Program-made: the position numbers and the translations under genes
Part shown: piece by piece, positions 1 to 32,894 of the stretch
How the letters are laid out: each line of letters begins with the position of its first letter
Numbering within the stretch: the stretch's first letter is position 1
Notes under the pieces: generated by a model
The model's input: only the letters and a program-made list of their open reading frames with translations
Databases searched by the model: none
What the model was told of the DNA's origin: nothing
DNA from: Pseudomonadota bacterium
GTDB lineage: Bacteria; Desulfobacterota; Desulfobacteria; Desulfobacterales; C00003106
Assembly (NCBI GenBank): GCA_043818915.1
Contig: JBDRFJ010000121.1
Location: forward strand, 1 to 32,894
Direction: 5' to 3'
DNA: 32,894 nucleotides

Positions 1-1152
1 GTTGTTGATGATCAGCCCGAGATTTTAGAAGATTACTTAAAAATCTTGGGTTCGTCCACTCATGAGAAAGGGGATGAGCTGACCGCACTGGAAGCGGAGC
101 TTTTTGGCAACCCCAATGATACTGCCCGGATATCTAATATGTCGAGCCTAATAGAAGAAGAGTATACAATAGACACGGCCAGTCAGGGTGCAGAGGCAAT
201 ATCCTCAGTTAAGCAATCAGTTAAAGATAAAGTGCCTTTTGCTGTTGCCTTTATGGATGTAAGAATGCCCCCCGGCATCAACGGTGTTCAGGCCGCTTCC
301 GAGATTCGCAAGATTGATTCGGATATAGAGATCGTCTTTGTCACAGCGTATTCCGATGTCTCTCGGAATGACATCCTGGACCAAATGGGAACTTCCGACA
401 AAATACTCTATATTCGCAAGCCATTTGACGCGGATGAAATAAAACAATTGGCCCTGACATTGACCGAAAAGTGGAATTTAAACAAGACAATCGATAAGAA
501 AACAGAAGAACTAAAACTGACCCACGCCATAACTATGCGTGCTTTAGCCGGACTCGCCGAACTAAGAGATACTGATACAGGGAACCATTTAAAAAGAGTA
601 GCTGAATACTCAAAGTTTATTGCTCAAGAGCTTGGCAAGCTCACAGCACCTAAGTGGTGTAAATATATAACGCCCTTGTATATAGAAGATATCGGTCAAT
701 CAAGTGTATTGCATGATATCGGAAAAGTTGGCATTGCTGATGGCGTCTTGCTCAAAAAAGGCAAGTTGACCTCCTCGGAATTTGAATTAATGAAAAGCCA
801 TTCCACTATCGGAGGAGATGCTTTGGCCGGGGCTGACGAGGAACTGGGAATTCGATCCTTTCTCACCTTGGCGAAAGAGATCGCCTACCACCACCATGAA
901 AAGTACGACGGCACCGGATATCCAAAGGGGCTAAAAGGTGAGGAGATTCCGCTTTCCGCACGGATTGTGGCATTGGCCGATGTCTATGATGCTCTGACGT
1001 CTGATAGACCCTACAGAGAAGCTTTGCCCCATGAAACAGCCGCAGACATAATTACCGGGGATATGGGAAAAAAGCATTTTGATCCAATAGTCTTAGACGT
1101 GTTTATCAATAATCAACATGAATTTAAAAAAATCCGCGAAAAGTATTCCTAG
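1..1152 (+). CDS. Response regulator receiver domain fused to HD-GYP domain (c-di-GMP phosphodiesterase, RpfG-like). The 5' end is truncated by the window edge.
   Basis: Frame 1 is open from base 1 (VVDDQPEILEDYL...), so the gene starts upstream of the window. The receiver region includes FMDVRMP, and the later HD domain carries HDIGK plus HHHEKYDGTGYP (GYP motif). ORF track entry 46..1152 covers the same frame. Confidence 0.85.
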   Translation, partial: VVDDQPEILEDYLKILGSSTHEKGDELTALEAELFGNPNDTARISNMSSLIEEEYTIDTASQGAEAISSVKQSVKDKVPFAVAFMDVRMPPGINGVQAASEIRKIDSDIEIVFVTAYSDVSRNDILDQMGTSDKILYIRKPFDADEIKQLALTLTEKWNLNKTIDKKTEELKLTHAITMRALAGLAELRDTDTGNHLKRVAEYSKFIAQELGKLTAPKWCKYITPLYIEDIGQSSVLHDIGKVGIADGVLLKKGKLTSSEFELMKSHSTIGGDALAGADEELGIRSFLTLAKEIAYHHHEKYDGTGYPKGLKGEEIPLSARIVALADVYDALTSDRPYREALPHETAADIITGDMGKKHFDPIVLDVFINNQHEFKKIREKYS

Positions 1153-1171: not shown

Positions 1172-2491
1172 CTATTTCTCCAATGTCAAAAGAACAACTT
1201 CTCCGGGGCAATTAAAACGAAGGGGTACTCCTGACGTGCCAACGCCGGAGCTGGTATAGCCGCGCATATCTCCGTATTTCCAAAGGCCGCCGGCAGTCCT
1301 TCGGGGAGCACGGCTGTGTGTCATAATGGGACCGTCATAGAAGGGGAGACGGATCTGCCCTCCATGGGTATGCCCACAGAGATAAAGGCTGGACATGTGC
1401 TTTGCAGCCTCCTTGTACGCCTCGGGAGAGTGAGCCACAAAAATACTGAAGTCGCTTTTGGGCACCTCCTTGAAGGCCGACCTTAAATCGTGGGATTTAT
1501 AATAGTGCGGGTCATCGACACCTACCAGCCACATGGTTTCCTTGTTACGCTTTAGCGGATAGGCATCGTTTACGAGCATGCATATTCCGGCATCCTCAAG
1601 ATCAGGTATTATCTCAATACAATCATGATTCCCGAGTACACCAAAGATTCCGTCTGTCGCCCTAATGTTCTCAACTACCTGTCGTAAACGCCGAATGGCC
1701 AGATAGGAGGAACCATACATTTCCGTCCGAATATCCCCCCCAATAATACAAACGTCGCATTCAACACGCGAAACAATGTTAATAATACGCTCGGTAAGTC
1801 CGGGCATTCCGTCAATGTGAAGGTCGCACAGAAAAAGGATGCGAAAAGAATCAAATGAGGCGGGGAGGTCAGGGAATTGCATTTCTAATTGATGAAACTT
1901 CACATCAAATGCGTTCCGTACACCGGTATCGTATTGTTTGATAAGCTTAAAAAAACCGGTTATTATCCATTTATAATAGATAATATTTTCAAAATTAAGA
2001 TAGCGTTCCAATGGAGGGAGGGGAATATGGCATGCGCGCCATGCCTTAAAACGAGTACGCGATCTTACGAGTCGTGGATATTTTTCGTGGGGTCTTGGAA
2101 GGATCTCTTTCTTAAAAAAACCAGCTCCAAAATGAGTAATCGGGATAAAAAGGAGAAGCAAAACAATAATCGGAATCCAATCCCATGAAAAGTAATGCTT
2201 AACAAATAAAAGAGGGAAAAGACCTTCCAGTAATTGATCAAGGATCGGTACCGCGGTGCCGGAAGCTAAGCTAAATCTTCTCTTAAGAAAACTGGACAGA
2301 GTATCTCCCAGCATCGAGAAAAATCCAATACAGAATCCCAAGATGGGTGAGAGGCCTAACAATAGGCTGAACAATATCCCGGTTGCTATGCTTCCGACCA
2401 CTCCACGGATGGTCTTGTGGGTGCCCAGCAGAGGTTCCCCATCCATAAATTTTCGATTGCCGTCAAGCGGCCAATTCCATTTGTCTTCCAA
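1172..2491 (-). CDS. Membrane CTP-transferase-like (CarS/DUF46 or CdsA-like) N-terminal domain fused to a calcineurin-like metallophosphoesterase. The start codon is uncertain.
   Basis: The N-terminal ~125 aa have WPLDG...GTHKTIRG, 3-4 TM segments and SFLKRRFSLASGTAVPILDQ, a CTP-transferase-family signature. The C-terminal ~300 aa have metallophosphoesterase motifs (CDLHID, GGDIR, GNHD, GHTHGGQ). The annotated start is a TTG; the frame stays open upstream to a stop at 2645-2647. Confidence 0.7.
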   Translation of the reverse strand: MEDKWNWPLDGNRKFMDGEPLLGTHKTIRGVVGSIATGILFSLLLGLSPILGFCIGFFSMLGDTLSSFLKRRFSLASGTAVPILDQLLEGLFPLLFVKHYFSWDWIPIIVLLLLFIPITHFGAGFFKKEILPRPHEKYPRLVRSRTRFKAWRACHIPLPPLERYLNFENIIYYKWIITGFFKLIKQYDTGVRNAFDVKFHQLEMQFPDLPASFDSFRILFLCDLHIDGMPGLTERIINIVSRVECDVCIIGGDIRTEMYGSSYLAIRRLRQVVENIRATDGIFGVLGNHDCIEIIPDLEDAGICMLVNDAYPLKRNKETMWLVGVDDPHYYKSHDLRSAFKEVPKSDFSIFVAHSPEAYKEAAKHMSSLYLCGHTHGGQIRLPFYDGPIMTHSRAPRRTAGGLWKYGDMRGYTSSGVGTSGVPLRFNCPGEVVLLTLEK

Positions 2492-18369: not shown

Positions 18370-19494
18370 ATGGGCACTGATAACGTAATCTTTTTAGAGG
18401 TAATAGAGTGGTTTGATGAAACAGGCCAGGAACTGGTGCATAGAATTCCGGAACAAGGTTCAGGTGAGATCAAATTCGGAGCTCAACTCACTGTGCGAGA
18501 GAGTCAGGCGGGTATATTATTCTACAAAGGTAAAGCATGCGAGGCTTTCGGGCCAGGCCGCCATACCCTGAGCACTGCAAATATTCCAGTCCTAACAAAA
18601 ATCCTGGCCCTGCCCTGGGGCATGACCAGTCCACTACGCGCCGAGGTCTATCTCGTCAATATGAAGGTCTTTACCAACCTCAAATGGGGTACACGAGATC
18701 CGGTGGCCTTCAAGGATTCGGAATTAGGACTCATACGGCTCCGAGCCCACGGAGTGTTTAATATCCAGGTAGTCCAGCCTCTCCTGTTTATCAACAGTCT
18801 GGTAGGCACCATGGGCAGATACACCACGGAAGAGATCGAAGAATACCTCCGACTCGTCATTATCTCGCGCCTTAACGACTACCTCGGCGAGCACTTAGAC
18901 AGCATCCTAAATCTTCCCGGAAGTTACGACGAGATCTCCGTAAATCTGCAAAAACGACTGCAAAATGATTTTAGCCACTTTGGACTGGCCTTGACTCACC
19001 TCTATATCACCTCCGTTACACCTCCGGCTGAAGTGCAAGAGGCCATTGACGACATGAGTCGCCTCAGCGTAATTCAGGACCTTGACAAACTGGTAAAGAT
19101 GAAAGCGGCAATGGCCATGGAAAAGGCGGCTGAATCGACCGGCGACGCCGGCGCGGGAATGGGCATGGGATTGGGCTTCATGATGCCGGCCATGTTTGCC
19201 GATATGTTCAGACCACAGAGCGGGGCTGCCGCTGCCTCGCAAGAAATCAAGTGCCCGGACTGCGGTTATGCTATTTCCAAAGATGCCAAGTTCTGTCCAC
19301 ACTGCGGTCACCAGCAGTTGGTTTTTGGTCAGTGCGTCAACTGCGGCAAGAATATGCCGCCCAACGCCGAATTTTGCCCCAAGTGCGGTCACCCGGCAGA
19401 CGAAAAGCCTGTTCCCAAAGCCTGCCCCCATTGCAAGGCCGAAAATCTGGCCGGCTCTATGTTCTGTAATCAGTGTGGGGAAAAGTTAGGATAA
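18370..19494 (+). CDS. SPFH/band-7-like protein with C-terminal tandem zinc ribbons (YdjI-like, COG4260 'putative virion core protein' family)
   Basis: The N-terminal region (FYKGKACEAFGPGRHTL...PLRAEVYLVNMKVFTNLKWGT) resembles the Bacillus subtilis YdjI family pattern (RAEV.FVN.K.FT..WGT). A Gly/Met-rich linker (GAGMGMGLGFMMPAMF) is followed by four CxxC pairs (CPDCG, CPHCG, CVNCG, CPKCG, CPHCK, CNQCG). Confidence 0.8.
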   Translation: MGTDNVIFLEVIEWFDETGQELVHRIPEQGSGEIKFGAQLTVRESQAGILFYKGKACEAFGPGRHTLSTANIPVLTKILALPWGMTSPLRAEVYLVNMKVFTNLKWGTRDPVAFKDSELGLIRLRAHGVFNIQVVQPLLFINSLVGTMGRYTTEEIEEYLRLVIISRLNDYLGEHLDSILNLPGSYDEISVNLQKRLQNDFSHFGLALTHLYITSVTPPAEVQEAIDDMSRLSVIQDLDKLVKMKAAMAMEKAAESTGDAGAGMGMGLGFMMPAMFADMFRPQSGAAAASQEIKCPDCGYAISKDAKFCPHCGHQQLVFGQCVNCGKNMPPNAEFCPKCGHPADEKPVPKACPHCKAENLAGSMFCNQCGEKLG

Positions 19495-19495
19495 A

Positions 19496-20725
19496 ATGAA
19501 CCTTACGGTTGAGCAAGAGTGTCCCCAGTGTGGAGCGCCTATAGAGCTGGACGAAACCGACCATGTGCTGCGCTGTCCTTATTGTAATGTAAAAAATTTC
19601 CTTTTTGCCCCGGATCATTTTCGTTTTGTGTTACCGCATAAAGCGACCAACAAGGAGATCATTTACGCGCCGTATCTCCGCTTTAGAGGGAATGTCTATT
19701 CTTGCCAGAGCCAGGCTATCCAACACCGCGTCGTTGACATCACACACCTGGGAACAACTTTAAAGGGCCTTCCCGTCTCCCTGGGGGTGAGGCCCCAGGC
19801 CATGAAGATGAAATTCGTCACTCCAGATCTGGCCGGCTCGTTTTTAAAGTCCTCAGTCAGGACAAGCGACATGCTGACCGCGGTCGGGAAGCATGCCTCG
19901 CTTTTTATTTCCGGCAAGACCTTTCACCGCGCCTATATCGGTGAGGCCTTAAGCCTTATCTATCTTCCAGTGTTTTTGGCAAACAACATGATCGTTGACG
20001 CAGTGACCAACAGCCCCATCACGAAACTCCCTTCTGATCACGACATCTTTGAACCAACCGTAATAAATAAAAATCCCAACTGGGGGCTTACCTTTATGGC
20101 CACCCTCTGCCCACAGTGCGGCTGGAATCTGGAAGGTGAAAGGGATAGTGTGGTCTTGACTTGCAGCAACTGCGATACTGCCTGGGAGGCCTCGAAAGGC
20201 AAATTTACCCGGGTGGATACCTCAATAATACCAGGCCGGGGAACAAACACGGTATATATGCCCTTTTGGAAGATATCGGCTACGAGCAAAGGAGTGGAAA
20301 TAAACTCTTACGCCGACTTCATCCAGGTCACCAATCAGCCACTGGTAGCTAAAAAGGATTGGGGAAAACAAGATATGAATTTCTGGAGCCCGGCCTTTAA
20401 AATTCGGCCAAAGATCTTTTTGCACCTGTCAAGGCAACTGACCATCTTGCAGCCAAATTTTCGGGCAGAAAAGGGATCCGCCAAGAACAATCTCTATCCC
20501 GTGACACTGCCCCAAACCGAGGCCGCGCAAGGGATGAAGCTGACTTTGGCAGGATCGGCCACTATCAAAAAGAAGATCATGCCCCTCCTAACGCGTCTCA
20601 ACTTTAACATAAAGGATTCAAGCCTGGTTTATCTTCCATTCACGGACACGGGGCACGATATGGTCCAGCAACAAACGCCGGTCAGTATAAACAAAAAGGC
20701 TTTGGAGTTCGGACGCCATCTGTGA
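19496..20725 (+). CDS. Internally duplicated double zinc-ribbon protein (two CxxC-x~17-CxxC ribbons, each followed by a ~170-aa domain). Possible YdjG-like partner of the SPFH protein.
   Basis: CPQCGAPIELDETDHVLRCPYCN matches CPQCGWNLEGERDSVVLTCSNCD, and the downstream repeats match too (IYAPYLRFRG/VYMPFWKISA, SLIYLPVF/SLVYLPFT). Its start codon lies 2 bp after the stop of 18370-19494, indicating translational coupling. Confidence 0.7.
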   Translation: MNLTVEQECPQCGAPIELDETDHVLRCPYCNVKNFLFAPDHFRFVLPHKATNKEIIYAPYLRFRGNVYSCQSQAIQHRVVDITHLGTTLKGLPVSLGVRPQAMKMKFVTPDLAGSFLKSSVRTSDMLTAVGKHASLFISGKTFHRAYIGEALSLIYLPVFLANNMIVDAVTNSPITKLPSDHDIFEPTVINKNPNWGLTFMATLCPQCGWNLEGERDSVVLTCSNCDTAWEASKGKFTRVDTSIIPGRGTNTVYMPFWKISATSKGVEINSYADFIQVTNQPLVAKKDWGKQDMNFWSPAFKIRPKIFLHLSRQLTILQPNFRAEKGSAKNNLYPVTLPQTEAAQGMKLTLAGSATIKKKIMPLLTRLNFNIKDSSLVYLPFTDTGHDMVQQQTPVSINKKALEFGRHL

Positions 20726-20817: not shown

Positions 20818-21933
20818 TTACTTCTCCCTTGAAGCCGTTGTCGGAAGTACCACCGTGAAGGTGCTGCCTTTGCCTAATTCACTTTCTAATTCTATCCTGC
20901 CGCCAAAGGTTTTCACGATATTATCAATGATGAAGAGCCCCATACCCATACCTTCTTTTTTTGTGGTATAGAAGGCCCCAAAAACTGTCTTTAAATTCTC
21001 TTTAGGTATGCCGGGGCCCGTATCTTGAACAGCTATGTACACACAATTATTATCTGAACTCCCTTTGATAATAATTTTACCCTTCATCCCCTCCATAGCC
21101 TGAGATGCATTGCGAATGAGATTGAGAAATATCTCTTCGAAATGGACATAATTACCTTCAATCTTGGGAATACCTTCATCCAGCTCCTTGATAATCTCTA
21201 TATTAATCAAAAGACGCTTAAACCCGTCTTTTGCCATTTCAATGGAAGCGTCTACTACATTATAGATATCGACTTTTTCCACATGACCAGGTTTGGCAAA
21301 ATCGCTGAGCCGTCCTACAATGTCTGTTGAACGCTTCGCATATTCCTTCGTTTTTATTAAGAGGCCATCTAACTCGGGATCACTAAAGCCCTTCATTTGC
21401 ATGTGCTTAAGGATGCAATCTATGCCAAGGTTGATTCCGGAAATTGTATTGTTGATCTCATGCCCGATACCGGCTGACATTTCAGCAATAGTGATCAATT
21501 TTTCAGATTTGATCAGGCATTGCGTAGCCGCTTCTAAGTCTTCTTTCATTTGATAATATTCAATTGCCTGCTTGATGATAAGTTCTATATCATGCATCGG
21601 CAAATCTTTTCGGATATAACGATAGACATCTCCTTTATTTATCGCATCAACAGCGGCTTCTATGTCAGAATAGGCAGTAATTAAAATCCTTACAATCTTA
21701 GGGTGGGCTTCTTTAATCTGAGTTAACAATTCTACCCCGGACATTTCAGGCATACGTTGATCGGAGATAACCACGGCAATGTCTTCTTTGCTCACAATAT
21801 CCAGGGCCTCGGCGCCGCCTGAAGCAGTGGTCAAATTATAATCTAATTCAAAAGCAAAGATCAGATTCTCCAGATTGTTTAATTCATCATCGACCAATAA
21901 TATCTTGTAGTTCTTATAGTCCAGCTTTGTCAT
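20818..21933 (-). CDS. Hybrid response regulator-histidine kinase (REC plus HisKA-like plus HATPase_c)
   Basis: Receiver region (ILLVDDELNN...VISDQRMPEMSG). H-box-like EMSAGIGHEINNTISGI. ATPase motifs LIRNASQA, DTGPGIP and GMGMGL. Confidence 0.88.
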   Translation of the reverse strand: MTKLDYKNYKILLVDDELNNLENLIFAFELDYNLTTASGGAEALDIVSKEDIAVVISDQRMPEMSGVELLTQIKEAHPKIVRILITAYSDIEAAVDAINKGDVYRYIRKDLPMHDIELIIKQAIEYYQMKEDLEAATQCLIKSEKLITIAEMSAGIGHEINNTISGINLGIDCILKHMQMKGFSDPELDGLLIKTKEYAKRSTDIVGRLSDFAKPGHVEKVDIYNVVDASIEMAKDGFKRLLINIEIIKELDEGIPKIEGNYVHFEEIFLNLIRNASQAMEGMKGKIIIKGSSDNNCVYIAVQDTGPGIPKENLKTVFGAFYTTKKEGMGMGLFIIDNIVKTFGGRIELESELGKGSTFTVVLPTTASREK

Positions 21934-22020: not shown

Positions 22021-25000
22021 TTACTTCGGCTGCCTGATAGGCAGGACGATGGTGAACTCTGTTCCCTGTCCGGGAATATTATTTACATCGACAGTTCCGT
22101 GGTGAGCTTTAATAATATTATAACAAATACTTAATCCTAAGCCGGAATTTTGACTGTCTTTGGTGGAAAAAAAAGGAGTGAATATCTTGGAAAGGTGTTC
22201 CTGAGGGATGCCCAGGCCATCATCGGCTATGGTGATGGTAACATTATCTTCGTCTTGCGCTGTCTTGATCCGGACCGTGCCCTTCTCTTCCATGGCCTGG
22301 TAGGCATTTATCAGCATATTCATAACAACTTGATTGATTTCTTCCATTCGACACTCTATGTTGGTTATCTCACCGTACTCCTTGTGAACCGTAACCTTGT
22401 TTTTAATCATAGGCAAAACCATGGCAAGGGTGTCGTCAATCCCTTTGTTTATATCAGAAAAAGCAATTCCTTCTTTATTTTTCCGGGAAAAATCAAGCAG
22501 AGAGTTCACAATAAAAAGAGAATGTTTTATGGCCTTATTATTGGTATCTAATGCTCTTTCGAGACTTTTGTACGTATCTTTTATGTCGAGCTTACCTTCC
22601 GAAAGCATGGTCAAACGCTTGTTGATACCATCTAAGCCTGCCCGTAAGCAGTATATGTTGTTTTTTATTTCATGGGCTACACCGGCAGCCAACTGGCCCG
22701 CGGTCTCCAGCCGCGCCGCTTGCACGAGTTGTACTTGTGCTTCCTCAAGTTTATGTAAGGCGTCTTTTAACTCTAAATTGCTTTTGTTTAATTGAGCCTG
22801 AAGCTCTTTTTTCGTTAGTAAGGAATCAACCACCGCGTGCAATTCATTGGGATTGAATGGTTTGGCAACATATTGATCCGCGCCATGTTTCAGGCCCGCA
22901 ATTTTATCATCAATGCTGGTCTTAGCTGTTAATAAGACAAGCGGTATGTGCTGCGTCCGCTCGTCGCTCTTAATCTTTTCGCACAACTCATACCCATCCA
23001 TTTCAGGCATCATCACATCCGATACGATGAGATCAGGCATTTTCTCGTTAACTCTATCCAGCGCTTGTTGACCATTATACGCTACAAATACATGATAGAA
23101 TTTTGTTAGACTTTTAGCGATGTTGCCGGCTAAGTCCCTATTGTCCTCCACTACCAGGACACTTTTTTTCTTTTCACCTGTCCCAGCTACCCCGTTAACT
23201 GTTTCTTCAGAATATTCTATTCCCTGTCCGAGGTCAGAAAATTGTACTTGTAATAAATCAATAGTCTCTCTATCTTCTCCCGTTATCTCGCGTCTGTCCC
23301 AACCTCTTCGCTCTTCTTGACGCCGCTGTTCCTCCCTGCGTTCTACAAACCCGTCGCTTGTCTCAAAAGCCTGTTCGCCTTCAAGTTCGTGACTTTCATA
23401 ATGATCCATGCCTTTCCGTAGATGAACGGTAAACGTTGTGCCTTTGCCCAATTCACTCGTCACATCAACAGATCCATGGTGCAATTCAACAAGCTCCTTC
23501 ACAAGGCACAGCCCAAGGCCTGTCCCTTCGTACTTCCGTGAGTTGGAGCCGTCCACCTGTTGGAATCGATCAAAAATATAAGGCAGGTCCTCTTGAGCAA
23601 TACCGATACCTGTATCATTTATCCGTACCTCAATATGGTCGTTCGCCTCCTTAGTCTTGATTTCTACTTTGCCTCCGCGATCAGTAAACTTTAAGGCATT
23701 ACTTATTAAGTTCGAAAAAACTTTTTCCATCTTATCCGTATCCAAATAAATCTCAATCAATTGATTGTCCGGCTCAAATACTAAGTCAATGCCCATTTCT
23801 TTAGCCCCGATGGAAGAGGCTACGACAACATCTTCCAGGATACTGTTTAAATCTCGCAGGCTGGCCTTAATTCCCATTTTGCCTGCTTCGAGCTTGGAGA
23901 TATCAAGTATTTCGTTAATACGCTTGAGTAATTTTCGGGCATTCCTCAGCATAGCCTTCTTTTCTTCGGTATTCTCAGGATCTAACTGTTCGCCAAACTT
24001 TGATAATACGTTTTGTAGGGGCAGAATTATATTGGTTAAGGGCGTGCGCAACTCATGGCTGACTTTGGCGAAAAATTCATTTTTGAGGGAGTCGAGTTTT
24101 TTTAGTTCCTCGTTAGCGCGTTTCAATTCGTTGGTTCTTTCCTCCACTTTTTGCTCAAGGTTAATATTTAATTCGTTTATTTCTTCATACTTACGACTGT
24201 TCTCAACAGCTACGGCCAGTTGGTTTGCCATGGTTGAAAGCACTTTCAGTTCTTCCCTTGAATAATCGCCGGCACTTTCCTTCTCGGATATAACCATAAA
24301 ACCTGTTAGTTCATGTTCAAATTTTATTGGAATACTTATATATGCCCCGAGCTCGTCAAGCTCCTTTAGTATTGACATATCACTGGGACTGTCTTTACTC
24401 GCTTTCTCATTTTTGACTATTTCATCTGTATCTTGCATGTATTGTACTAACGCACTACTTCCATCGATTTTATAATCCCCTTTATATCTTCCGTAAGATG
24501 ATCTGAGTTCGTATTGTCGATCATTAGTTAACAAATACGTACCAAAGGCATTGGTATCTATAGCACTGGCAATCGTTTCTGTAGTATTTGATAGAAGTTC
24601 TTTAAGGTTTTGCAGGTTGGCAATTTTTCTTGAGAGATCATCTAAAGCTTCTCTGTAATCAAACGCCCCCTTAAAAAGTATATTCTCAAGATTTCTCTGG
24701 GCCTGCACTTTTATCCTGGGAAATATGAAACCAACGAGGACAAATAGAGCACCTAATACAGGGTAATAGAAAACTGGGGCGAAATATTTTTCTGCAATTA
24801 TAACAACACCAAAACAGGGCGTGATAAGTACCAGAAGGACCAGCGAGTACGCAAAGGTCTTCTTGATAATAACTCTAATGTCCATGAGTTGATGCCTGAC
24901 TATGGAGTATGCTATAAGTGATATCCAGGCTAACGCAATAAAATGACCGAATGGATAACTCTCTACACCGCAGTCTGTGGCAACATCTGCACCCCCGACA

Positions 25001-25548
25001 AGACCTATGACGTAGGCAACGAGTAGATATTTTAACCTATTGCGTTCTTTAGCGCCTTCGGCGGTCGCCTTCATCACAAGTAGCAGTTCTCTAAAACTCA
25101 GGACGAAAATCACAACGAAAGTGAGAAAGAATGTTTGAGCACCAACATGGTTTACTTTCGTATGATACCCCCAATAGTAATCATGCAGCCCTGTGACCAA
25201 TTTATCCGTAGTAAGCACCAAAATACAAAAGATAATACTGTTTATGTATAGCAAAACAAGTGTCTTTCTTCTCTCTTCCGCCTTGTGAAGAAAGCTCACC
25301 GTGAAATGATAAAATAACGTCGGGATGAAAACTACGCCCGTATAAAGAAACTTAGCGCACCACAAAGCAAAAGATTTATTTGTTGTCGAATACATCATGA
25401 AATATCCGAACAACCACATGAAGACGCAGAGACATTCGAAAAAAAAGGTGATGTTAGCCGTAGACCTTCTATTTTGCAAAAATACAAATATACCTACCCC
25501 AAAAACTAGCAAACTTGAAATTAAGGGCGGAAGGGAATATATTGTCAT
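22021..25548 (-). CDS. Large hybrid sensor histidine kinase: N-terminal multi-TM sensor (7TMR-DISM-like), GAF-like region, coiled coil, HisKA/HATPase core 1, Glu/Arg-rich linker, REC, second HisKA-like/HATPase core
   Basis: There are 6-7 N-terminal TM helices. Core 1 has FFAKVSHELRTPL, DTGIGIA and GTGLGL. The linker is EERREEQRRQEERRGWDRRE. The receiver region is VLVVEDNRDLAG...DLIVSDVMMPEMDG. Core 2 has GVAHEIKNNIYCL, DDGLGIP and GLGLSI. Confidence 0.9.
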   Translation of the reverse strand: MTIYSLPPLISSLLVFGVGIFVFLQNRRSTANITFFFECLCVFMWLFGYFMMYSTTNKSFALWCAKFLYTGVVFIPTLFYHFTVSFLHKAEERRKTLVLLYINSIIFCILVLTTDKLVTGLHDYYWGYHTKVNHVGAQTFFLTFVVIFVLSFRELLLVMKATAEGAKERNRLKYLLVAYVIGLVGGADVATDCGVESYPFGHFIALAWISLIAYSIVRHQLMDIRVIIKKTFAYSLVLLVLITPCFGVVIIAEKYFAPVFYYPVLGALFVLVGFIFPRIKVQAQRNLENILFKGAFDYREALDDLSRKIANLQNLKELLSNTTETIASAIDTNAFGTYLLTNDRQYELRSSYGRYKGDYKIDGSSALVQYMQDTDEIVKNEKASKDSPSDMSILKELDELGAYISIPIKFEHELTGFMVISEKESAGDYSREELKVLSTMANQLAVAVENSRKYEEINELNINLEQKVEERTNELKRANEELKKLDSLKNEFFAKVSHELRTPLTNIILPLQNVLSKFGEQLDPENTEEKKAMLRNARKLLKRINEILDISKLEAGKMGIKASLRDLNSILEDVVVASSIGAKEMGIDLVFEPDNQLIEIYLDTDKMEKVFSNLISNALKFTDRGGKVEIKTKEANDHIEVRINDTGIGIAQEDLPYIFDRFQQVDGSNSRKYEGTGLGLCLVKELVELHHGSVDVTSELGKGTTFTVHLRKGMDHYESHELEGEQAFETSDGFVERREEQRRQEERRGWDRREITGEDRETIDLLQVQFSDLGQGIEYSEETVNGVAGTGEKKKSVLVVEDNRDLAGNIAKSLTKFYHVFVAYNGQQALDRVNEKMPDLIVSDVMMPEMDGYELCEKIKSDERTQHIPLVLLTAKTSIDDKIAGLKHGADQYVAKPFNPNELHAVVDSLLTKKELQAQLNKSNLELKDALHKLEEAQVQLVQAARLETAGQLAAGVAHEIKNNIYCLRAGLDGINKRLTMLSEGKLDIKDTYKSLERALDTNNKAIKHSLFIVNSLLDFSRKNKEGIAFSDINKGIDDTLAMVLPMIKNKVTVHKEYGEITNIECRMEEINQVVMNMLINAYQAMEEKGTVRIKTAQDEDNVTITIADDGLGIPQEHLSKIFTPFFSTKDSQNSGLGLSICYNIIKAHHGTVDVNNIPGQGTEFTIVLPIRQPK

Positions 25549-26039
25549 TTTTTGGTTTCCTGCTAGAATTCGTGCCTACTTAACACCCGAGGCACATCGC
25601 CAGACGTGTCATCTCATCGGATGCGGCCTCGTATGTCTCAAACTTGCCAAGCCTTAATGTCCAGTGAACTAGGGCAATTCCACAGATCCTGTCCCGGCAA
25701 GTAATTCACAGGATGCATATTCCGAGGCAAGTTCAGCATACCTGATCGGTGTGGCGACAGACAATCGCCTGTCGACCACAAATCCGAATAGGATAAGTCA
25801 CCTTTTGGGCCTGATCTTTCTATCGTCTTCTATTGCTTGAAACTAAAGAAATGTGCGAATCTAGCGTGCTGCCAACATATTTCTATGTCATAGTGAGATT
25901 TAAACGTCAAAAGAGTGACTAGGGTTATTTGAGCATTCCGCGTTAGGGACTGAGGGTTGAGAAGGTAATGGCCTCGTGAACTAACAGTTTATCGCACACT
26001 CAAGATCGGGAATGCTCTCATGACATTTCACAAATTGTC

Positions 26040-27407
26040 CTATGTACGGGGCGCAAGCTGATCATTTGACTTAGATTGTACCTTGGCCATATCCGAAAAT
26101 ATCTGCTTGAAATGCCTAGCTACAGATAATCGAGCTTCCTTGTTATAAACCCTCATGTAAATATCCAAAACCCCGGCTTCGAGTTCATCAATTGTTAGGT
26201 GTTTCGGAGCATAGTTCACATCTAAAAACGTATACTTATCCCACGAGGATTCCAACAGTCTCTTCTCCGCTGTCAACCTTTCTCTTAATCTAGTCCCCGG
26301 CAATGGTGTTGGAACAGTGATTTGAGATGCGTAAAGGTTAGTATCAAGAATAAAGTTTGCCACATCATTGAAAACGGAACTCTTGTCGTTATCGAACCCC
26401 ACAAGGAAGGCACCCATTATCCCTATTCCATGTGACTGAATCCTTTGGATAAGCATCGGATAGTCTTTCACCCGGCGCCTTTTCCAATCGTTCTTACTTA
26501 GTCCCTTCAAGTTATCCTCATTAATGCTTTCAAATCCTATTAACAGGATGGTGCAGCCACTTCGTCTCAATTTTTCCAAAAACTTCTCATCATAGCCAAC
26601 GGACACGTCAGTCGATGCCGCCCATCTTATTTTAAGTGGTTCAATCCTATCTAATAGATCATTCGCATATTTCTTGTTAAAAAAAATATTGTCATCTGCG
26701 AAATTAATTTGATAATTACCCCACGTATCTATAACATAATCTATTTCTCTCATTACTTGGTCTATCGACTTATGCCTGTACTTTAAGCCAAAAACCTTGG
26801 ATGCTGCACAAAACTCACAATCATGTGGACAACCTCTACTCGTTTGTATCCACACCATCTTATAGTGCTCAATATCCAGCAAATCGTATCTTGGAACTGG
26901 AGAGTTTCTTAAATTAAAATAGCTGGCAGATTTATAGCATCGTTTCAGCCTCCCGTCTTCTACATCCTTAAGTACAGTACTCCATATAGTTTCTACCTCA
27001 CCGATCACTACACTGTCTGCATGCTCAACCGCTTCCTCTGGCATTAGGGTGGGGTGAATGCCGCCAACAATGACCTTGCAATCCCGCTGTCTGAATTTAT
27101 CCGCTAAGTAATACGCTCTGGTCGCTGTTTGGGTTATCGCACTAATACAGACTAAGTCATATTTTTCCTTGAAATCCACCTGCTCAATATTCTCGTCAAT
27201 CAGGCTTATTTCGTGTTCTTCAGGGGTCAGTGCCGCTATTATCAAAAGGCCCAGACTGAAACCGGACCAAAAGTCAAGCCGTGTTGATAATACAGTGTGC
27301 TTGTCTGCATCCCGAACATTGTTCCAGAATTTTTTATACTTTTCGTTCTTGCTGAAGAACGTTCCTTTTGGATTTATAAGAGCTATCTTCATCTGTCTTC
27401 CCCTCAT
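26040..27407 (-). CDS. B12-binding-domain radical SAM enzyme (class B rSAM). The probable start is the Met at 27392.
   Basis: An N-terminal cobalamin-binding Rossmann-like domain (MKIALINPKG...KVIVGGIHPT) precedes the radical-SAM cluster motif SRGCPHDCEFC (CxxxCxxC). Length is about 450 aa. Confidence 0.85.
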   Translation of the reverse strand: MRGRQMKIALINPKGTFFSKNEKYKKFWNNVRDADKHTVLSTRLDFWSGFSLGLLIIAALTPEEHEISLIDENIEQVDFKEKYDLVCISAITQTATRAYYLADKFRQRDCKVIVGGIHPTLMPEEAVEHADSVVIGEVETIWSTVLKDVEDGRLKRCYKSASYFNLRNSPVPRYDLLDIEHYKMVWIQTSRGCPHDCEFCAASKVFGLKYRHKSIDQVMREIDYVIDTWGNYQINFADDNIFFNKKYANDLLDRIEPLKIRWAASTDVSVGYDEKFLEKLRRSGCTILLIGFESINEDNLKGLSKNDWKRRRVKDYPMLIQRIQSHGIGIMGAFLVGFDNDKSSVFNDVANFILDTNLYASQITVPTPLPGTRLRERLTAEKRLLESSWDKYTFLDVNYAPKHLTIDELEAGVLDIYMRVYNKEARLSVARHFKQIFSDMAKVQSKSNDQLAPRT

Positions 27408-27564
27408 TTATGTGCGCTTCACGTAATTAAATTCGATCCAGTGCGGCCAATACCAGGAATCCGAGATTTTTTTCAGGCTGATTCCATCTATTGGTTTTGA
27501 GAAGGCTCTGACTATGTAGCAATTCTTCAATATTGCCATGACATAAACAAAATCAACAAAAACA

Positions 27565-29055
27565 TTACATAGACAATTTATGAGGAATCTTGTATGAGCT
27601 TATCCGTCTCCTCAAAACACGCCTTAGATCGTTCGAAGTGAAACTATCATGATCTCTCCCACGTGTAATCTTAGCTGCTATTTTATGACCCCATACAACA
27701 TCCTCATGCAGATCAAACGTAACATCTTCAACCTGCTTAACCGACAGGATCAGGTTTCTTAGCTCGGCAATATCAACAGCATTACCCCCTACCTTAACAA
27801 TGTGCTTTTTTAATCCTTCAAAGTATACATAACCATTCTGATCGACTTTCCCGTAATCTCCAGTACAAAGCCAGCCATCCTTAAGCACTCTCATGGTATC
27901 ACGTTTATTTCTATAATAACCTGCCATATTTTGCGATGTTTTTATAAGAATTTCTCCTACTTTCCCGATTTCACAATCCCTTCCCTTTTCGTCTACAATT
28001 CTCATTTGGACACCATGGAGTGGAAGTCCCAAAGTCTCTGGTTTGTTATTAGATAAATAATTGCAGGTGACAGGCTGACATTCAGTCAAGCCATAACCTT
28101 GAAGAACATCAAGATTCATCTTCTCTTTTATCAATCTGTTGAGTTGGACAGACATGAAACTGCCACCTGATATGCCATATTTTAGAGAAGATATGTCATG
28201 CTGCGCACTTTTGTAATGTCGCAACAAGGCAGAAAATAACGTTGGTACTAATATTACTATATTAACCTTATTAGATGAGATAGCATGAAAAATCTTTTTA
28301 GAACTATAATTATCTACTATCACAACCTTGGCCCCTACTAAAAGTGGGGCTAAAATGCTTCCTTCCAGCGGAAGTATATGTGTGCATGGCAGTACCAATA
28401 GATGAGTTTCAGTGCTGGACAATTTCCTGTGCCGTATATCATTGAAAGATCCGTGAATATAGTTCGTATGCGTCAACATGGCTCCCAGAGGGTAACCATA
28501 ACCACGATAGGTATAATTAATACTTGCTACTTGTCTCGAACTCGTATTATGTGTTTTCCACCTTTGATCACCATCTCTTCTACCCATTTCATAAAGATCA
28601 CTGAGTGTATGCAATAGTGATTCTTCCAAGTGCCCTTCCTTGTCCAAGATTGGAATCTCCCTCGTTTCTTCTCTCACTATTAGTGTCCTGTTTGCCAATA
28701 AGGAAGGGCTCTCATCCAATATCTTGTTGAGAAGAGTAGGAGTGAGGATTACGACCTCAGGTGTGCAGTTCTTAAAAATCCCGGAAAGTTCCCAGCATGT
28801 CATCTGGGGTTTCACAGGAACTGCTATGGCATTCACATTAAGGAGGGCAAAAAAACTGTAGATAAACTCTTTACAATTTGGAAGGAGTATTGCGACTCTG
28901 GTATTTTTTCTTATTCCTATAGACCTAAATGCGTTTGATAAGGATGCTATCTGTTGCCATAAGCGCTCATAAGATATCTTCTCTTCATCTTCAATAAGGG
29001 CTATCTTTTGAGGGTATGTATCAGCCGTCCTTTTTAGCAAAGAGGACACGTTCAT
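27565..29055 (-). CDS. ANL-superfamily adenylate-forming enzyme (acyl-ACP/acyl-CoA synthetase-like) with a divergent phosphate-binding loop
   Basis: ANL motifs GYGLTE and TGDYGKVDQNGYVYFEGLKKHIVKVGGNAV, plus a C-terminal lysine region SYKIPHKL. The canonical T/SSGTTGxPKG loop is replaced by YTYRGYGYPLGAMLTHTN. Its start overlaps the reductase stop (ATGA). Confidence 0.75.
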   Translation of the reverse strand: MNVSSLLKRTADTYPQKIALIEDEEKISYERLWQQIASLSNAFRSIGIRKNTRVAILLPNCKEFIYSFFALLNVNAIAVPVKPQMTCWELSGIFKNCTPEVVILTPTLLNKILDESPSLLANRTLIVREETREIPILDKEGHLEESLLHTLSDLYEMGRRDGDQRWKTHNTSSRQVASINYTYRGYGYPLGAMLTHTNYIHGSFNDIRHRKLSSTETHLLVLPCTHILPLEGSILAPLLVGAKVVIVDNYSSKKIFHAISSNKVNIVILVPTLFSALLRHYKSAQHDISSLKYGISGGSFMSVQLNRLIKEKMNLDVLQGYGLTECQPVTCNYLSNNKPETLGLPLHGVQMRIVDEKGRDCEIGKVGEILIKTSQNMAGYYRNKRDTMRVLKDGWLCTGDYGKVDQNGYVYFEGLKKHIVKVGGNAVDIAELRNLILSVKQVEDVTFDLHEDVVWGHKIAAKITRGRDHDSFTSNDLRRVLRRRISSYKIPHKLSM

Positions 29056-30158
29056 AATAATATTCTATCCTGAGGAGTTATAAATTGCGCATCAAGGCAA
29101 AATTTAAAAATAGTATGCAAGAGCTTTCTATCTATTTGGGGCCATTCAAATCCATTTTTCTTTAAGATATTCATGGCCCTTCTGTTGTCATATTTCACTC
29201 CATTATGATTAAAGTATGGTATATACGGCTCCAACAGTAGTCTTCGAGCACCTTTCAGTGTGCTCATATCAAAATTCTCCAAAGGTATCCTCTCTGGATC
29301 AGGGTAGCCGAAAAAATCACTCGCGGTTTTAAAGATGAAATCTCCTGTCACATCATGGGTATTGGTCAAATGAAATGTCTCGTTACAAGGGTGGGTGTGG
29401 GCATGAATTCGATATATCGCGTCTGCTACTGAGTCTACTGGTATAAGATTATAGTTGACGCCCCCGTCGGCTGGAATTTGCTTGTAAATTCCTAAAGAAA
29501 AAATGTGGATCGGTTGATATATCACTCTGAAGTTTATCGCATAACCATCTTGAGAATCACCCACGATAGCACTTGGCCTGAAAATATTCACGTTAAGGCC
29601 CTTCGTCCTATACGCGTGGACGAGTTGTTCAGCCTCAAATTTCGTTTGTTCATAGGTGTTCTTAAAATACTGCCCCTTATCTAAAGAATCTTCATAGAAT
29701 GTGCCGTGATACGCTCCGGCGACGGCAACGGTACTGATGTGGTTCACGGACTCAAATGATCCGTTCTTGAGACATTGCAATGCAAAATCAAGGATGTTTT
29801 TTGTCCCTTCTACATTTATCTTCTTTATTCTTTCATACGATACATTAAACTGAGCAAGAGCTGCGCTGTGAAAGATAACAGTAACCTCTCGTGAGAGCCT
29901 TTCTGCATGTTTTTTGCTCAAGCCGAAATCCGGACTTGTTATACTCCCCTCGACAATCTCCACCCGAGGCCTTATCCTGTGGTATTCAGCCTCACTATAT
30001 CGTTCTTTTAATAATCTCTCTACTCTTTGAGGAGCAGAAAGACTTCCCTGCCGCCTCACTAATAGAATCACTTTGACATCTTTATCTTGAAGAAAGCGCC
30101 TGACGAGATAAAATCCCAAAAAGCCAGTGCCACCCGTTATAAGTACTTTTTTACTCAT
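29052..30158 (-). CDS. Thioester-reductase-type SDR (NAD_binding_4 / 'male sterility' family; acyl-thioester to aldehyde/alcohol reductase)
   Basis: N-terminal KVLITGGTGFLGFYLV (TGxxGxxG), a catalytic YEQTK (YxxxK), and an extended C-terminal substrate domain. Length is 368 aa. It overlaps the ANL gene by 4 bp. Confidence 0.8.
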   Translation of the reverse strand: MSKKVLITGGTGFLGFYLVRRFLQDKDVKVILLVRRQGSLSAPQRVERLLKERYSEAEYHRIRPRVEIVEGSITSPDFGLSKKHAERLSREVTVIFHSAALAQFNVSYERIKKINVEGTKNILDFALQCLKNGSFESVNHISTVAVAGAYHGTFYEDSLDKGQYFKNTYEQTKFEAEQLVHAYRTKGLNVNIFRPSAIVGDSQDGYAINFRVIYQPIHIFSLGIYKQIPADGGVNYNLIPVDSVADAIYRIHAHTHPCNETFHLTNTHDVTGDFIFKTASDFFGYPDPERIPLENFDMSTLKGARRLLLEPYIPYFNHNGVKYDNRRAMNILKKNGFEWPQIDRKLLHTIFKFCLDAQFITPQDRILL

Positions 30159-30191
30159 GATATATCTTTATTGCTTTGTAATCCACAATTG

Positions 30192-30223
30192 CTCAATTCC
30201 CCAATTCCTAAATCCCTCAATTT
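30192..30223. repeat. Fourth copy of the dispersed motif (ctcaattccccaattcctaaatccctcaattt), between the PilZ-ACP gene and the reductase gene
   Basis: Near-identical to the reverse complement of 8129-8165 and to 8196-8226 (AATCCCCAATTCCTAAATCCCTnAATT core). Confidence 0.7.
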
Positions 30224-30226
30224 CTT

Positions 30227-31018
30227 CTACACTCTCTGCTCAGAATAATCCTCTACAAGATCCATCATATCTCCTACGGTTATTACCTCTATAACTCTAC
30301 TAACGTCTATTTCTATATCATAGATAGTTTCCAGAACAGCTAACGTTTCCACCGCCATTAGAGAGTCAACACCAAGGTCTTCACGGATTCTCGCGGAATC
30401 GGAAAACGACTCTTCACTGATTCTTCCTACTTGGGCCAAGACCTTCTTAATCTTTTGTCTGTTCTGAGCCCGCTGTTCTTGCTTGAGAACAATCATTTCT
30501 CCCACATAAGAAGAAAGTAAGTCATTCTCAGCCTTGCTCATATTTACAAAACGTAAGCCCATTCCATATTTTGTTTTGACCGACAGTCCTTTTAAATTAT
30601 AGATCCAGGCCACGTCGGCCTTTGGGCTTATATTATTATTTTTCCCCACAAGCTGTATGTTGAGCTTCAATTTCTTCTTTTTAGCTGATAGTTCTTCGAC
30701 AACTGTTTTGTCAGCAATAATAGCATTACAGGAAACCCCTCCAGTGCCTATGTCATGGGTCTGAGCGTCATATTTTGGAAAAAATATTCCACTGGTGTGA
30801 TCCCCGTCAAATACTGTAAAATTAATAGACAACGCTTTTGCTATCCTTGGGTGACTCCGTCTATCAGATATCTCATTCAGTTCCGTCTCAGTATTACGTA
30901 ATTCCATATAATGACCTCCCGTAGCTGTTATATAAATTAACTCCTGCGCAAGCTTGTTTAACAGGTCTAATATCACATTTTTCCCAAAAATGTCCAGACT
31001 AAAATGGGCATAACCCAT
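30227..31018 (-). CDS. PilZ-like domain fused to an acyl carrier protein (phosphopantetheine-binding) domain. The probable start is the internal Met at 30907.
   Basis: The N-terminal half has RRSHPRI (RxxxR) and, ~35 aa later, DIGTGGV (D-x-S/G-x-G-G), consistent with a c-di-GMP-binding PilZ fold. The C-terminal ~75 aa are a canonical ACP (KIKKVLAQV...REDLGVDSLMAVETLAVLETIYDIEID; DSL holds the serine that carries 4'-phosphopantetheine). Confidence 0.7.
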   Translation of the reverse strand: MGYAHFSLDIFGKNVILDLLNKLAQELIYITATGGHYMELRNTETELNEISDRRSHPRIAKALSINFTVFDGDHTSGIFFPKYDAQTHDIGTGGVSCNAIIADKTVVEELSAKKKKLKLNIQLVGKNNNISPKADVAWIYNLKGLSVKTKYGMGLRFVNMSKAENDLLSSYVGEMIVLKQEQRAQNRQKIKKVLAQVGRISEESFSDSARIREDLGVDSLMAVETLAVLETIYDIEIDVSRVIEVITVGDMMDLVEDYSEQRV

Positions 31019-31235
31019 TTATATTTGGCAATATTCTTGTATGTGCCTATGGGAGCTATTTTCAGATATTATTCTCGAGACAAACGGTAAGAATACAGGA
31101 AAGAAACGTGAAAAACGCTATATCAAAATTCAAATGTGATACTTTTTTATATCCCCCCTCACCCTTTCAGCCATCGTAGCCAAGGTTACTAGGGCTGAAA
31201 GAGGAGGGGAAGAAATATGACTTTTTACGTAGTCA

Positions 31236-32561
31236 TCAAAATTGATATTGAATACCCAAGGCAAAGAGATGGACATCGATGTCGACCGAACTGTTGTCAT
31301 AATCTCCGCCAAGGAGTTTGCTGGTTCCTACGGATTGCCGGGAGCCAAAAGAATATTGATAGGCAAAATCAAAGGACCAGTTCTTCCAATTACGACCATA
31401 TCCGAGGGATATCAGGTGTTCGAGAATTCCAGGGATCACCGGCACAAGTGTAGAGCTTGGGACGGGATTTTCGGTATATACATAACCGAGGCGCAGGGTA
31501 TCTGCCATGGACAGGAAATATTCATATCCCAAGCAATAAGAATAACTATCCTTCCAGTCAAGGGCCAAGGTGTCCTGTGGCTTAGTTCCGGCCAAAGCAT
31601 CGAACTCGGCATTGTCACCATTGGAGAGTTTAAACGTTACTTTGTCAAAAGCCGAAGACCAATCAATCCATTTCACATCCGCTGAAATTCTGTGGTCGTC
31701 TTTGAATCGATGCGTAATTCCTACACCCAGGCTCTGGGGCCATGTAAAATCAAACTCAACGTCATACTGAGCCGTAGAGTCTGTTACGGGCAACGGGTAT
31801 CCGGTAGTGTCCAAATCCGCATCCCCACCCATATGGAACTTATCCTGGTAATGATAGGCAAAGCATAGGGTTGTGTTTGACGATATCCGCCACTGTGCCC
31901 CCAGATTCCATGCTAACGCCCAATCATCCCCTTCCAGGTCAAGCAGTGCGGGAACTCCCTGAAGCGGTCCGGTCTGAAAGGTATAGGGCTCCTCGAATTC
32001 CAGCTTGCTGTATGAAGGACCCATTGCAAGGCCTATGGAAATTTGGTCCGTCATTTTCCATCCCAAACCGAACAGGATCTTCGTAAGGGAGGCGTAGGAA
32101 GCATATTTTTGTTCGCCATAAATAGGGTGAACCAAGTCATATTCCGTTGAAAACCCGGCAGGATGATAGACTCCCAGCCCGAGACTGAAGCGGCCCTCAG
32201 CATATCCTTGAGCGTATGAAAAAGAGGGCAAGAAACAAAGAATGTCTTTTCCATCCTGATCATTATCCGCATCTTTGTAGCTCGGAGATAGGAGTAAAAA
32301 ATCAAAATCCGCTTCGACCCTTTTCCCCTTCAGCTCAGTCAACGCGGACGGGTTATCGTGAATGAGCATGCCGTTGTCGCTATGGGCGATATTTGTTCCT
32401 CCTCGCCCGCTGGAGATAGGTCCCATGCTGTCTCGCAAAACTCCGTTAGCGAAACTGTGACTAACTAAACATAAACACATGCAACAGGTAAGTGCCAAAG
32501 CTATGTATATTTTTCTCATTTTTTCCCTACCCCTCCTTTTCTTTTCCATTACAGAACACAT
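31236..32561 (-). CDS. FadL/OmpP1/TodX-family outer-membrane hydrophobic-compound channel (14-strand beta-barrel). The probable start is MRKIY at about 32519.
   Basis: Signal peptide (MRKIYIALALTCCMCLCLVSHSFA). An N-terminal hatch-like segment (SSGRGGTNIAHSDNGMLIHDNPSALTEL; compare the FadL pattern SGLGRA...NPAL). Alternating amphipathic beta-strands and a C-terminal aromatic (GIQYQF). Confidence 0.65.
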   Translation of the reverse strand: MCSVMEKKRRGREKMRKIYIALALTCCMCLCLVSHSFANGVLRDSMGPISSGRGGTNIAHSDNGMLIHDNPSALTELKGKRVEADFDFLLLSPSYKDADNDQDGKDILCFLPSFSYAQGYAEGRFSLGLGVYHPAGFSTEYDLVHPIYGEQKYASYASLTKILFGLGWKMTDQISIGLAMGPSYSKLEFEEPYTFQTGPLQGVPALLDLEGDDWALAWNLGAQWRISSNTTLCFAYHYQDKFHMGGDADLDTTGYPLPVTDSTAQYDVEFDFTWPQSLGVGITHRFKDDHRISADVKWIDWSSAFDKVTFKLSNGDNAEFDALAGTKPQDTLALDWKDSYSYCLGYEYFLSMADTLRLGYVYTENPVPSSTLVPVIPGILEHLISLGYGRNWKNWSFDFAYQYSFGSRQSVGTSKLLGGDYDNSSVDIDVHLFALGIQYQF

Positions 32562-32894
32562 ACAAATTCACCAGAGCCCGAAAGGCGTTGATATTTTATT
32601 GCTATCGACAGTACTTATACGTTTTTTTAGCTTTTTTTCTGTAAAATATGGACAGAGGGATGTAGGACGTTGGAAAAGTCGAGTGGTAGAGTATTGGGTT
32701 GATGGAAACGTCATGCCCTAAGGGCAATATTGTGGAGTTATTGCTACACATCCAGTAACTATTCAGCGTAATCAGCGTAATCCGTAACGATACTACTCTT
32801 GTAGAAGAAAATCCGGTAATTTTCCGCCAAACAGCAGGTCAAGCGCCTGACTTGACGAGACACCATGTTTTCGACAAGTCGACAAGTAACCTCG

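Follow-up and report, generated by a model that had tools for sequence, protein, structure and literature searches.

Can a receptor domain for a second messenger act directly on the carrier that shuttles acyl chains between enzymes? The question is raised by a single gene in a 32,894-nt stretch of DNA (the window; contig JBDRFJ010000121.1 of assembly GCA_043818915.1, deposited as Pseudomonadota bacterium), whose product joins a PilZ domain, the receptor fold for cyclic di-GMP (c-di-GMP), to an acyl carrier protein (ACP) in one polypeptide, PilZ-ACP. PilZ effectors control polysaccharide synthases, flagellar motors, chemotaxis proteins, and transcription, and we know of none that controls a phosphopantetheinyl carrier. 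A review of PilZ domain architectures gives glycosyltransferase, HlyD-like, PilZN, REC, GGDEF/EAL/HD-GYP, MCP, CheC, and kinase domains as partners and includes no phosphopantetheinyl carrier. Full-text literature searches on PilZ with acyl carrier protein, phosphopantetheine, radical S-adenosylmethionine (SAM), or AMP-binding returned nothing relevant, nor did a search combining radical SAM, ACP, and HD-GYP. The statement in a preliminary description of this DNA that no characterised carrier is fused to PilZ thus agrees with both the literature and the review.

The PilZ-ACP architecture itself is virtually certain, and we class the protein as a PilZ effector fusion whose output domain has no precedent, within an undescribed cassette. 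As to function, we lean modestly towards a reading in which the ACP would be a c-di-GMP-gated carrier in a split carboxylic-acid reductase pathway (adenylation, thiolation, and reduction; A-T-R).

The Gene and Its Two Domains

An uninterrupted open reading frame (ORF) of 263 aa occupies 30227..31018 on the minus strand, as do all features below unless noted, and includes RRSHPR, DIGTGG, and DLGVDSLMAVETL, exactly as first described. The ORF is real, but the coding sequence most likely does not extend to 31018; it is trimmed here to 30227..30907 (226 aa), the remaining stretch to 31018 being probably untranslated. The true start is almost certainly the ATG at 30907, because a GGGAGG Shine-Dalgarno sequence lies ~8 nt upstream of it, nearly all homologues are 226 aa long with the N-terminus ME/QL, and the NCBI annotation has the 226-aa form (MFH1673121.1, ‘phosphopantetheine-binding protein [Pseudomonadota bacterium]’). 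The longer start at 31018 was rejected on the same three grounds, and the RxxxR motif is retained with the start at 30907. Public databases name the protein only automatically. Residue numbers given here are those of the 226-aa protein, and Pfam match positions are those of the 263-aa ORF.

A scan of 25900-32894 for promoters and terminators gave site counts not above those of shuffled controls. One sigma-70-like site (TGGACA-16-TG-GATATT, 30969..30996) lies between the ATG at 31018 and the likely start at 30907; it is compatible with the latter and not significant, such sites being no commoner than in shuffled sequence. A GGCAC...TTGC element noticed by eye upstream was considered as a sigma-54 promoter and dismissed for its wrong spacing.

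Both domains are recognised by Pfam profiles above their gathering thresholds, and both matches are well beyond chance. PP-binding (PF00550) matches ORF aa 188-254 at 38.5 bits (cut-off 20.8, E 1.4e-9), and PilZ (PF07238) matches ORF aa 52-172 at 32.4 bits (cut-off 22.5, E 1.3e-7), covering positions 1-100 of the 102 in the profile and starting exactly at RxxxR. The orthologue from Omnitrophota gives a PilZ match of 31.3 bits. In the 226-aa protein, the PilZ domain spans aa 15-135 (30503..30865), a beta-barrel into which one helix (aa 67-74) is inserted, and the RxxxR motif, R17-S-H-P-R21 (30845..30859), lies in its flexible N-terminal arm. The ACP domain follows at aa 151-217 (30257..30457). 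When aa 150-219 are aligned to Escherichia coli AcpP (phmmer), Ser182 falls on Ser36 (DLGVDS182LM vs DLGADSL), and the Ser182 codon (30362..30364), within a D-S-L motif, marks the predicted phosphopantetheine attachment site. No phosphopantetheinyl transferase gene was identified within the window. The NCBIfam equivalogs for ACP match only below threshold (TIGR00517, 35.8 bits vs a cut-off of 70.45); the domain is therefore a specialised carrier rather than the housekeeping AcpP of fatty-acid synthesis.

An AlphaFold2 model of the 226-aa protein (27-sequence alignment, pLDDT 76.7, pTM 0.65) consists of a disordered arm at aa 1-17 that holds RxxxR at low pLDDT, a six-stranded PilZ barrel with its strands between aa 27 and 121, one long helix at aa 125-161 (30425..30535, pLDDT ~85), and a helical bundle that continues up to aa 225. 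The long helix combines the C-terminal helix of PilZ with helix I of the ACP four-helix bundle. The model of P0041, a relative with 45% identity, repeats this continuous helix at aa 117-153. In these models the PilZ helix thus appears to be fused in register with ACP helix I, with no flexible linker in between. Foldseek against the PDB places MotI/DgrA on top (E 4e-6), followed by the YcgR PilZ domain, MapZ, BcsA, and PlzA, and then by ACPs with a target TM of ~0.9; the structures that match best are ACPs and PilZ proteins with bound c-di-GMP. Profiles, the AcpP alignment, two structure predictions, and fold searches together bear out the original assignment of an N-terminal PilZ domain and a C-terminal ACP with its conserved Ser.

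A Rare Family in Uncultivated Bacteria

A word-indexed search returned 42 proteins with 45-100% identity, all from metagenome-assembled genomes (MAGs) or metagenomes and almost all already annotated with PilZ and PP-binding. In all, the fusion is retained in ~43 homologues, which come from uncultivated bacteria and whose identity goes down to roughly 31-33%. An HMMER pass with the PilZ part alone over 1.84 billion representatives found only 10 clusters, among them P0043, a distant PilZ-ACP (31% identity) that is followed by an NAD_binding_4 reductase, and P0045 (L074:143-1927), which joins a PilZ domain from this clade to a 4HBT-type thioesterase and stands directly before a HisKA_7TM protein, so that a further enzyme of acyl thioesters is associated with this kind of PilZ and kinase. 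Among GTDB species representatives, full-length relatives occur in only four genomes, one of them a closed Candidatus Omnitrophota chromosome (33% identity). The PilZ clade of the fusion is rare and has no annotated relatives.

Could assembly, a frameshift, or gene calling have joined two genes that are separate in the organism? The window is a MAG contig, and one relative, P0033, resembles a chimera at the domain boundary. Such an origin is nonetheless scarcely credible, given the uninterrupted reading frame, the single predicted helix over the junction, and an architecture of 220-235 aa that recurs in over 40 sequences drawn from independent NCBI, JGI, ENA, and Logan assemblies as well as in the closed Omnitrophota chromosome. 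In P0033 itself (L007:3198-4370), a PilZ domain 75% identical to that of the window is joined exactly at the PilZ/ACP boundary to half of a methyltransferase. It was considered as a second type of fusion and rejected: a profile for class I methyltransferases is matched over its C-terminal half only, a Lon protease lies upstream, and the locus is a single short contig, so that an assembly chimera or a recent rearrangement is the probable explanation. Loci L048-L073 (acidobacterial, Ktedonobacteria, and actinomycete) were likewise set aside as unrelated carriers that match in the ACP part only and lack the AMP-binding and radical SAM neighbours described below.

Within the family, the residues expected of both domains are strongly retained. 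All members with a complete N-terminus have RxxxR (41/41), as do the Omnitrophota orthologue and distant relatives that are stand-alone PilZ proteins. Residues D181, S182, and L183 of the ACP are invariant. Phe120 of the PilZ signature is kept, and the PilZ review describes a conserved Phe in the last strand.

The Operon and a Proposed Pathway

The reductase gene (29052..30158) begins 68 nt downstream of PilZ-ACP and encodes a stand-alone thioester reductase (NAD_binding_4, 207 bits in Pfam) with GGTGFLG and YEQTK motifs. It belongs to the short-chain dehydrogenase/reductase (SDR) type that acts on carrier-bound thioesters, and it adjoins the carrier; its nearest solved structures in a PDB search are the reductase domains of MxaA, of polyketide synthases (PKS) and non-ribosomal peptide synthetases (NRPS), and of carboxylic-acid reductase (CAR). 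Overlapping it by 4 nt is the gene of an atypical AMP-binding (ANL) enzyme (27565..29055; Pfam, 236 bits), followed by that of a B12-binding radical SAM enzyme (26040..27407), which by its profile matches is BchE/HpnJ-like with DUF4070. A sequence search of the PDB with the radical SAM enzyme matched the cluster motif only and gave no functional lead. Next come a hybrid histidine kinase of 1175 aa (22021..25548), with HisKA_7TM, GAF, HisKA, HATPase, REC, and second HATPase domains, and a receiver and HATPase protein (20818..21933), the last gene of the conserved block. Literature searches on HisKA_7TM turned up only surveys of archaeal two-component systems. Upstream of PilZ-ACP lies a FadL/TodX-family outer-membrane transporter for hydrophobic compounds (31236..32561; Toluene_X, 150 bits).

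The ANL enzyme departs from its superfamily in a consistent way. At the P-loop (A3) position it reads YTYRGYGYPLG vs the expected YTSGTTGxPKG, and it ends just after YKIP, before the A10 lysine (PKTxxGK) would be reached; both features are shared by 12/12 aligned cassette homologues. The motifs GYGLTE, TGD, and GGNxVD are kept. The enzyme may therefore carry out a chemistry other than standard adenylation. This distinct ANL subfamily, with INYTYRGYGYPLGAM at the P-loop and A10 missing, extends from the window to Omnitrophota and Spirochaetota, and it was also seen at L001, L003, L005, L009, L014, L015, L019, L020, L028, L038, and L045.

In the pathway that we propose, the operon would encode a small thiotemplate route with the ACP as its dedicated carrier. 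The FadL-type porin would possibly import a hydrophobic carboxylic acid, the ANL enzyme would load it onto the ACP, the B12-radical SAM enzyme would alter the tethered acid, and the stand-alone reductase would release the product as an aldehyde or alcohol, the overall logic being that of a split A-T-R enzyme. The site for c-di-GMP would lie between the invariant RxxxR arm and that face of the PilZ barrel which bears [D/N]hGxxG, and binding there would reposition or occlude the rigidly attached ACP, switching its access to the partner enzymes on or off. The output of the pathway would then track cellular c-di-GMP, whose level would in turn be set by the co-encoded kinase and receiver (and by HD-GYP proteins in relatives).

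The operon of the window shares three functions with carboxylic-acid reductases and NRPS-like A-T-R enzymes (CAR, Lys2, and those with MxaA-type terminal reductases), namely an ANL enzyme, a carrier whose serine stands in a DSL motif, and a thioester reductase of the SDR type. Unlike them, it distributes these over three polypeptides, places a PilZ domain on the carrier, and adds a B12-radical SAM enzyme as a core component, and its ANL enzyme departs from the canonical P-loop and lacks the A10 lysine.

Two further loci in the window were noticed as well. One (1172..2491) encodes a CarS-like N-terminus (CDP-archaeol synthase family) together with a calcineurin-like metallophosphoesterase, a pairing that is unusual for a bacterial MAG. 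The other (18370..20725, plus strand) is a pair that lies divergently to the cassette at its end, made up of an SPFH/Band-7 protein with multiple C-terminal zinc ribbons and a 409-aa protein with weak zinc-ribbon matches.

Conservation of the Cassette and Its Link to c-di-GMP

The order PilZ-ACP, reductase, ANL is found at every relative locus with enough DNA, usually followed by the radical SAM enzyme and a 7TM-GAF kinase. The kinase follows the cassette at L001, L003-L005, L008, L009, L012-L014, L020, and L074. The FadL gene is also upstream at L003-L006, L009, L011, L016, and L020 and is absent at L001 and L013. The receiver and HATPase protein is 70-77% identical to its orthologues at L003 and L005, and at L003 and L004 a REC-HD-GYP gene stands directly after the kinase genes. 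Homologues of the radical SAM enzyme with 40-52% identity occur in cassettes of Omnitrophota and Spirochaetota. At one Omnitrophota locus (L014, 8934-18983), PilZ-ACP, the radical SAM and ANL enzymes, and the 7TM-GAF kinase are retained, and the reductase is swapped for two proteins of the 2-hydroxyacyl-CoA-dehydratase D-component type (HGD-D) and a BcrAD-type ATPase; a sigma-54 response regulator is added, and an HD-GYP match lies nearby. Another (L020, 1422-12936) encodes an SDR, FadL, a stand-alone ACP, ANL, the radical SAM enzyme, and a class I/II aminotransferase, and continues with a 7TM-GAF kinase, two REC proteins, and a GAF-HD-GYP protein.

A third lineage carries the same core with PilZ in a different place. 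When the window proteins were compared by tblastn with the fetched loci, ~33 loci of Spirochaetota were found to share the ANL/ACP/radical SAM core (ANL, 29-33% identity; stand-alone ACP, 31-45%; radical SAM, 40-46%), together with a HisKA-HATPase-REC-HD-GYP protein. All of those with sufficient upstream DNA encode, immediately upstream, a protein of ~1137 aa that starts with two canonical PilZ domains (RRKNVR...DISRTG and RLIPR...NISTEG) and has a methyltransferase at its end. PilZ thus accompanies the core in two arrangements or more, either as part of the carrier polypeptide or on a neighbouring protein, and HD-GYP phosphodiesterases travel with the core. By their gene content, the spirochaete loci tie the pathway to c-di-GMP independently of the fusion. 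The spirochaete block lies at L015, L017-L047, and L053 (for example, L038:5148-14063) and is apparently an undescribed c-di-GMP-linked cassette in its own right. The middle region of the ~1137-aa protein gives only sub-threshold matches, to serine hydrolases and LuxD-type acyltransferases.

The same gene content bears on what the pathway would be for. PilZ-ACP could be receptor and carrier just as proposed and yet serve bulk lipid metabolism, with imported fatty acids turned into fatty aldehydes or alcohols (perhaps methylated) that would supply ether lipids, wax, or a remodelled envelope in biofilm life, and no dedicated signal molecule. The upstream FadL-type transporter fits this, as do the top NCBIfam match of the ANL enzyme, a long-chain fatty-acid ligase, and the placement of the reductase in the ‘male sterility’/fatty acyl reductase family of Pfam. 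The cassette is, however, coupled tightly and variably to sensor kinases and HD-GYP proteins in three lineages, and its tailoring and release enzymes are exchanged (reductase, 2-hydroxyacyl-CoA-dehydratase-like, class I/II aminotransferase, and hydrolase-methyltransferase), which is more like a specialised metabolite pathway; the two cassettes without FadL also speak against it. A role in bulk lipid metabolism is therefore possible, if on the unlikely side.

Does the PilZ Domain Read c-di-GMP?

The gating step of the proposed mechanism depends on nucleotide binding, and it is here that the second PilZ motif matters. According to the PilZ review, this motif is [D/N]hSxxG, and its Ser touches c-di-GMP. 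In the window it reads D52-I-G-T-G-G57 (30737..30754), that is, [D/N]hGxxG with Gly for the canonical Ser. The preliminary description had named RRSHPR and DIGTGG as the two PilZ hallmarks; the first is a true RxxxR, and the second is indeed a variant of D-x-S-x-x-G, but one in which the ligand-contacting residue is replaced. Across the family, position 1 is D or N (with one Thr), and h and the final G are conserved. The stand-alone PilZ relatives P0047, P0048, and P0051 have a canonical N/D-x-S-x-x-G, and since these distant relatives keep Ser, the change to Gly is a derived one that became fixed in the fusion clade.

Several observations weigh against the proposed mechanism. The third position of the motif is Gly in 40 members, Ala in 1, Cys in 1, and Ser in 0. 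The Pfam score for PilZ is modest (32 bits), and some relatives are ‘weak’ or below the cut-off. The rigid connection of the two domains depends on AlphaFold2 models of moderate confidence. For the reductase, TIGR01746 scores 181.7 bits, below the curated cut-off of 213. Since the ANL enzyme has neither a canonical P-loop nor the A10 lysine, it may not load the ACP in an ATP-dependent reaction. The HD-GYP gene of the window lies 29 kb from PilZ-ACP and outside the operon, and no diguanylate cyclase was seen among the annotated ORFs of the window. That HD-GYP gene, from which the preliminary description had argued for active c-di-GMP signalling, is genuine (46..1152, plus strand; a response-regulator HD-GYP protein with HDIGK and GTGYPKG motifs; HD_5, 98 bits) but too distant to count as linkage; the linkage across relatives, of the Rosetta-stone type, is much stronger evidence than the argument from this gene.

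Some divergent PilZ proteins act as ligand-independent adaptors, and PilZ-ACP could be another, its PilZ domain docking the ACP to the radical SAM enzyme, the reductase, or the kinase with no nucleotide bound. The absence of the canonical Ser from all members would suit such a role, as would the modest Pfam score, and the review of PilZ diversity reports repeated loss of the binding motif in fusion lineages. Three findings make a pure adaptor unlikely. The two arginines, R17 and R21, sit in a disordered, fast-evolving arm and are nevertheless invariant from 100% to ~24% identity, which is hard to explain without a ligand; this invariance at a place with no structural role argues that a ligand site is maintained. 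The spirochaete version of the cassette has fully canonical PilZ domains and HD-GYP proteins. Finally, there is a precedent for binding without the Ser. In Myxococcus xanthus PixB (PilZ-PilZ-GNAT), RxxxR is kept and the Ser is lacking in both PilZ domains, and the protein binds c-di-GMP specifically in vitro in an assay of the ligand's differential radial capillary action (DRaCALA; PMC8316039). Loss of the Ser thus does not exclude binding. With the Ser absent in every member, binding by PilZ-ACP is plausible, its support being indirect, from PixB and from the linked HD-GYP and PilZ genes.

PixB is also among the closest known parallels, as its PilZ domains are fused to an acyl-transfer-related output and c-di-GMP is proposed to tune the attached activity. 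It differs from PilZ-ACP in that this output is a catalytic acetyltransferase, the PilZ domains are two, and the setting is motility and development rather than an A-T-R/radical SAM operon. The canonical PilZ effector fusions (BcsA cellulose synthase, Alg44, YcgR/MotI, and MapZ) share with PilZ-ACP the fold, the bipartite layout of the binding site, and the C-terminal PilZ helix as the link to the regulated partner. In PilZ-ACP, by contrast, the motif Ser is Gly, and the helix continues straight into ACP helix I.

A different reading of the same substitution is that the PilZ domain with Gly for Ser recognises another nucleotide or ligand, such as a different cyclic dinucleotide. Strict conservation of Gly at this position across phyla does suggest a site that was selected rather than one that decayed. 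We nevertheless consider a switch of ligand improbable: all of the linked signalling genes are of the c-di-GMP type (HD-GYP, and canonical PilZ in spirochaetes), and the residues of RxxxR and D/N, which read guanine and phosphate, have been kept.

A Possible Signalling Circuit

The recurrence of membrane kinases beside the cassette invites comparison with CqsA/CqsS, LqsA/LqsS, and PhcB/PhcS, which are pairs of an autoinducer synthase and a membrane kinase; CqsA is of the aminotransferase-fold type and PhcB of the methyltransferase type. These pairs resemble the cassette in setting genes for the synthesis of a lipid-derived small molecule beside a polytopic membrane histidine kinase. Their enzyme types recur in the class I/II aminotransferase-fold enzyme at L020 and in the spirochaete methyltransferase, a likeness of enzyme type and not of sequence-level membership. 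Unlike the cassette, the known pairs have no counterpart of the ANL, ACP, and B12-radical SAM core or of the c-di-GMP coupling.

A broader proposal follows this likeness, and we offer it as speculation that is rather unlikely to hold in full: PilZ-ACP might be the feedback node of a circuit found in several phyla, in which ANL, ACP, and the B12-radical SAM enzyme make a lipid-like autoinducer. Release would be lineage-specific, by reductase, dehydratase-like enzyme, aminotransferase, or hydrolase-methyltransferase. Sensing would fall to the 7TM-GAF or hybrid kinase encoded next door, the phosphorelay would drive an HD-GYP phosphodiesterase, and c-di-GMP would feed back on signal synthesis by way of PilZ, a part of the carrier protein here and of the neighbouring multi-PilZ protein in spirochaetes.

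Concluding Remarks

The fusion exposes a conserved and unstudied cassette that brings together an atypical ANL enzyme, an ACP, a B12-radical SAM enzyme, a two-component system, and PilZ/HD-GYP proteins. It is carried by Spirochaetota, by Omnitrophota, and by a lineage whose MAGs bear no label beyond ‘Pseudomonadota bacterium’ or ‘bacterium’. The cassette makes a link between c-di-GMP and the synthesis of small molecules or lipids directly testable with a few recombinant proteins. If c-di-GMP does gate the ACP, it would be the first second messenger to act directly on the shuttle of a thiotemplate pathway. Fatty-acid, polyketide, or NRPS-like chemistry would then gain a new point of control in PilZ-ACP, which would also offer a compact part to those who engineer inducible pathways.

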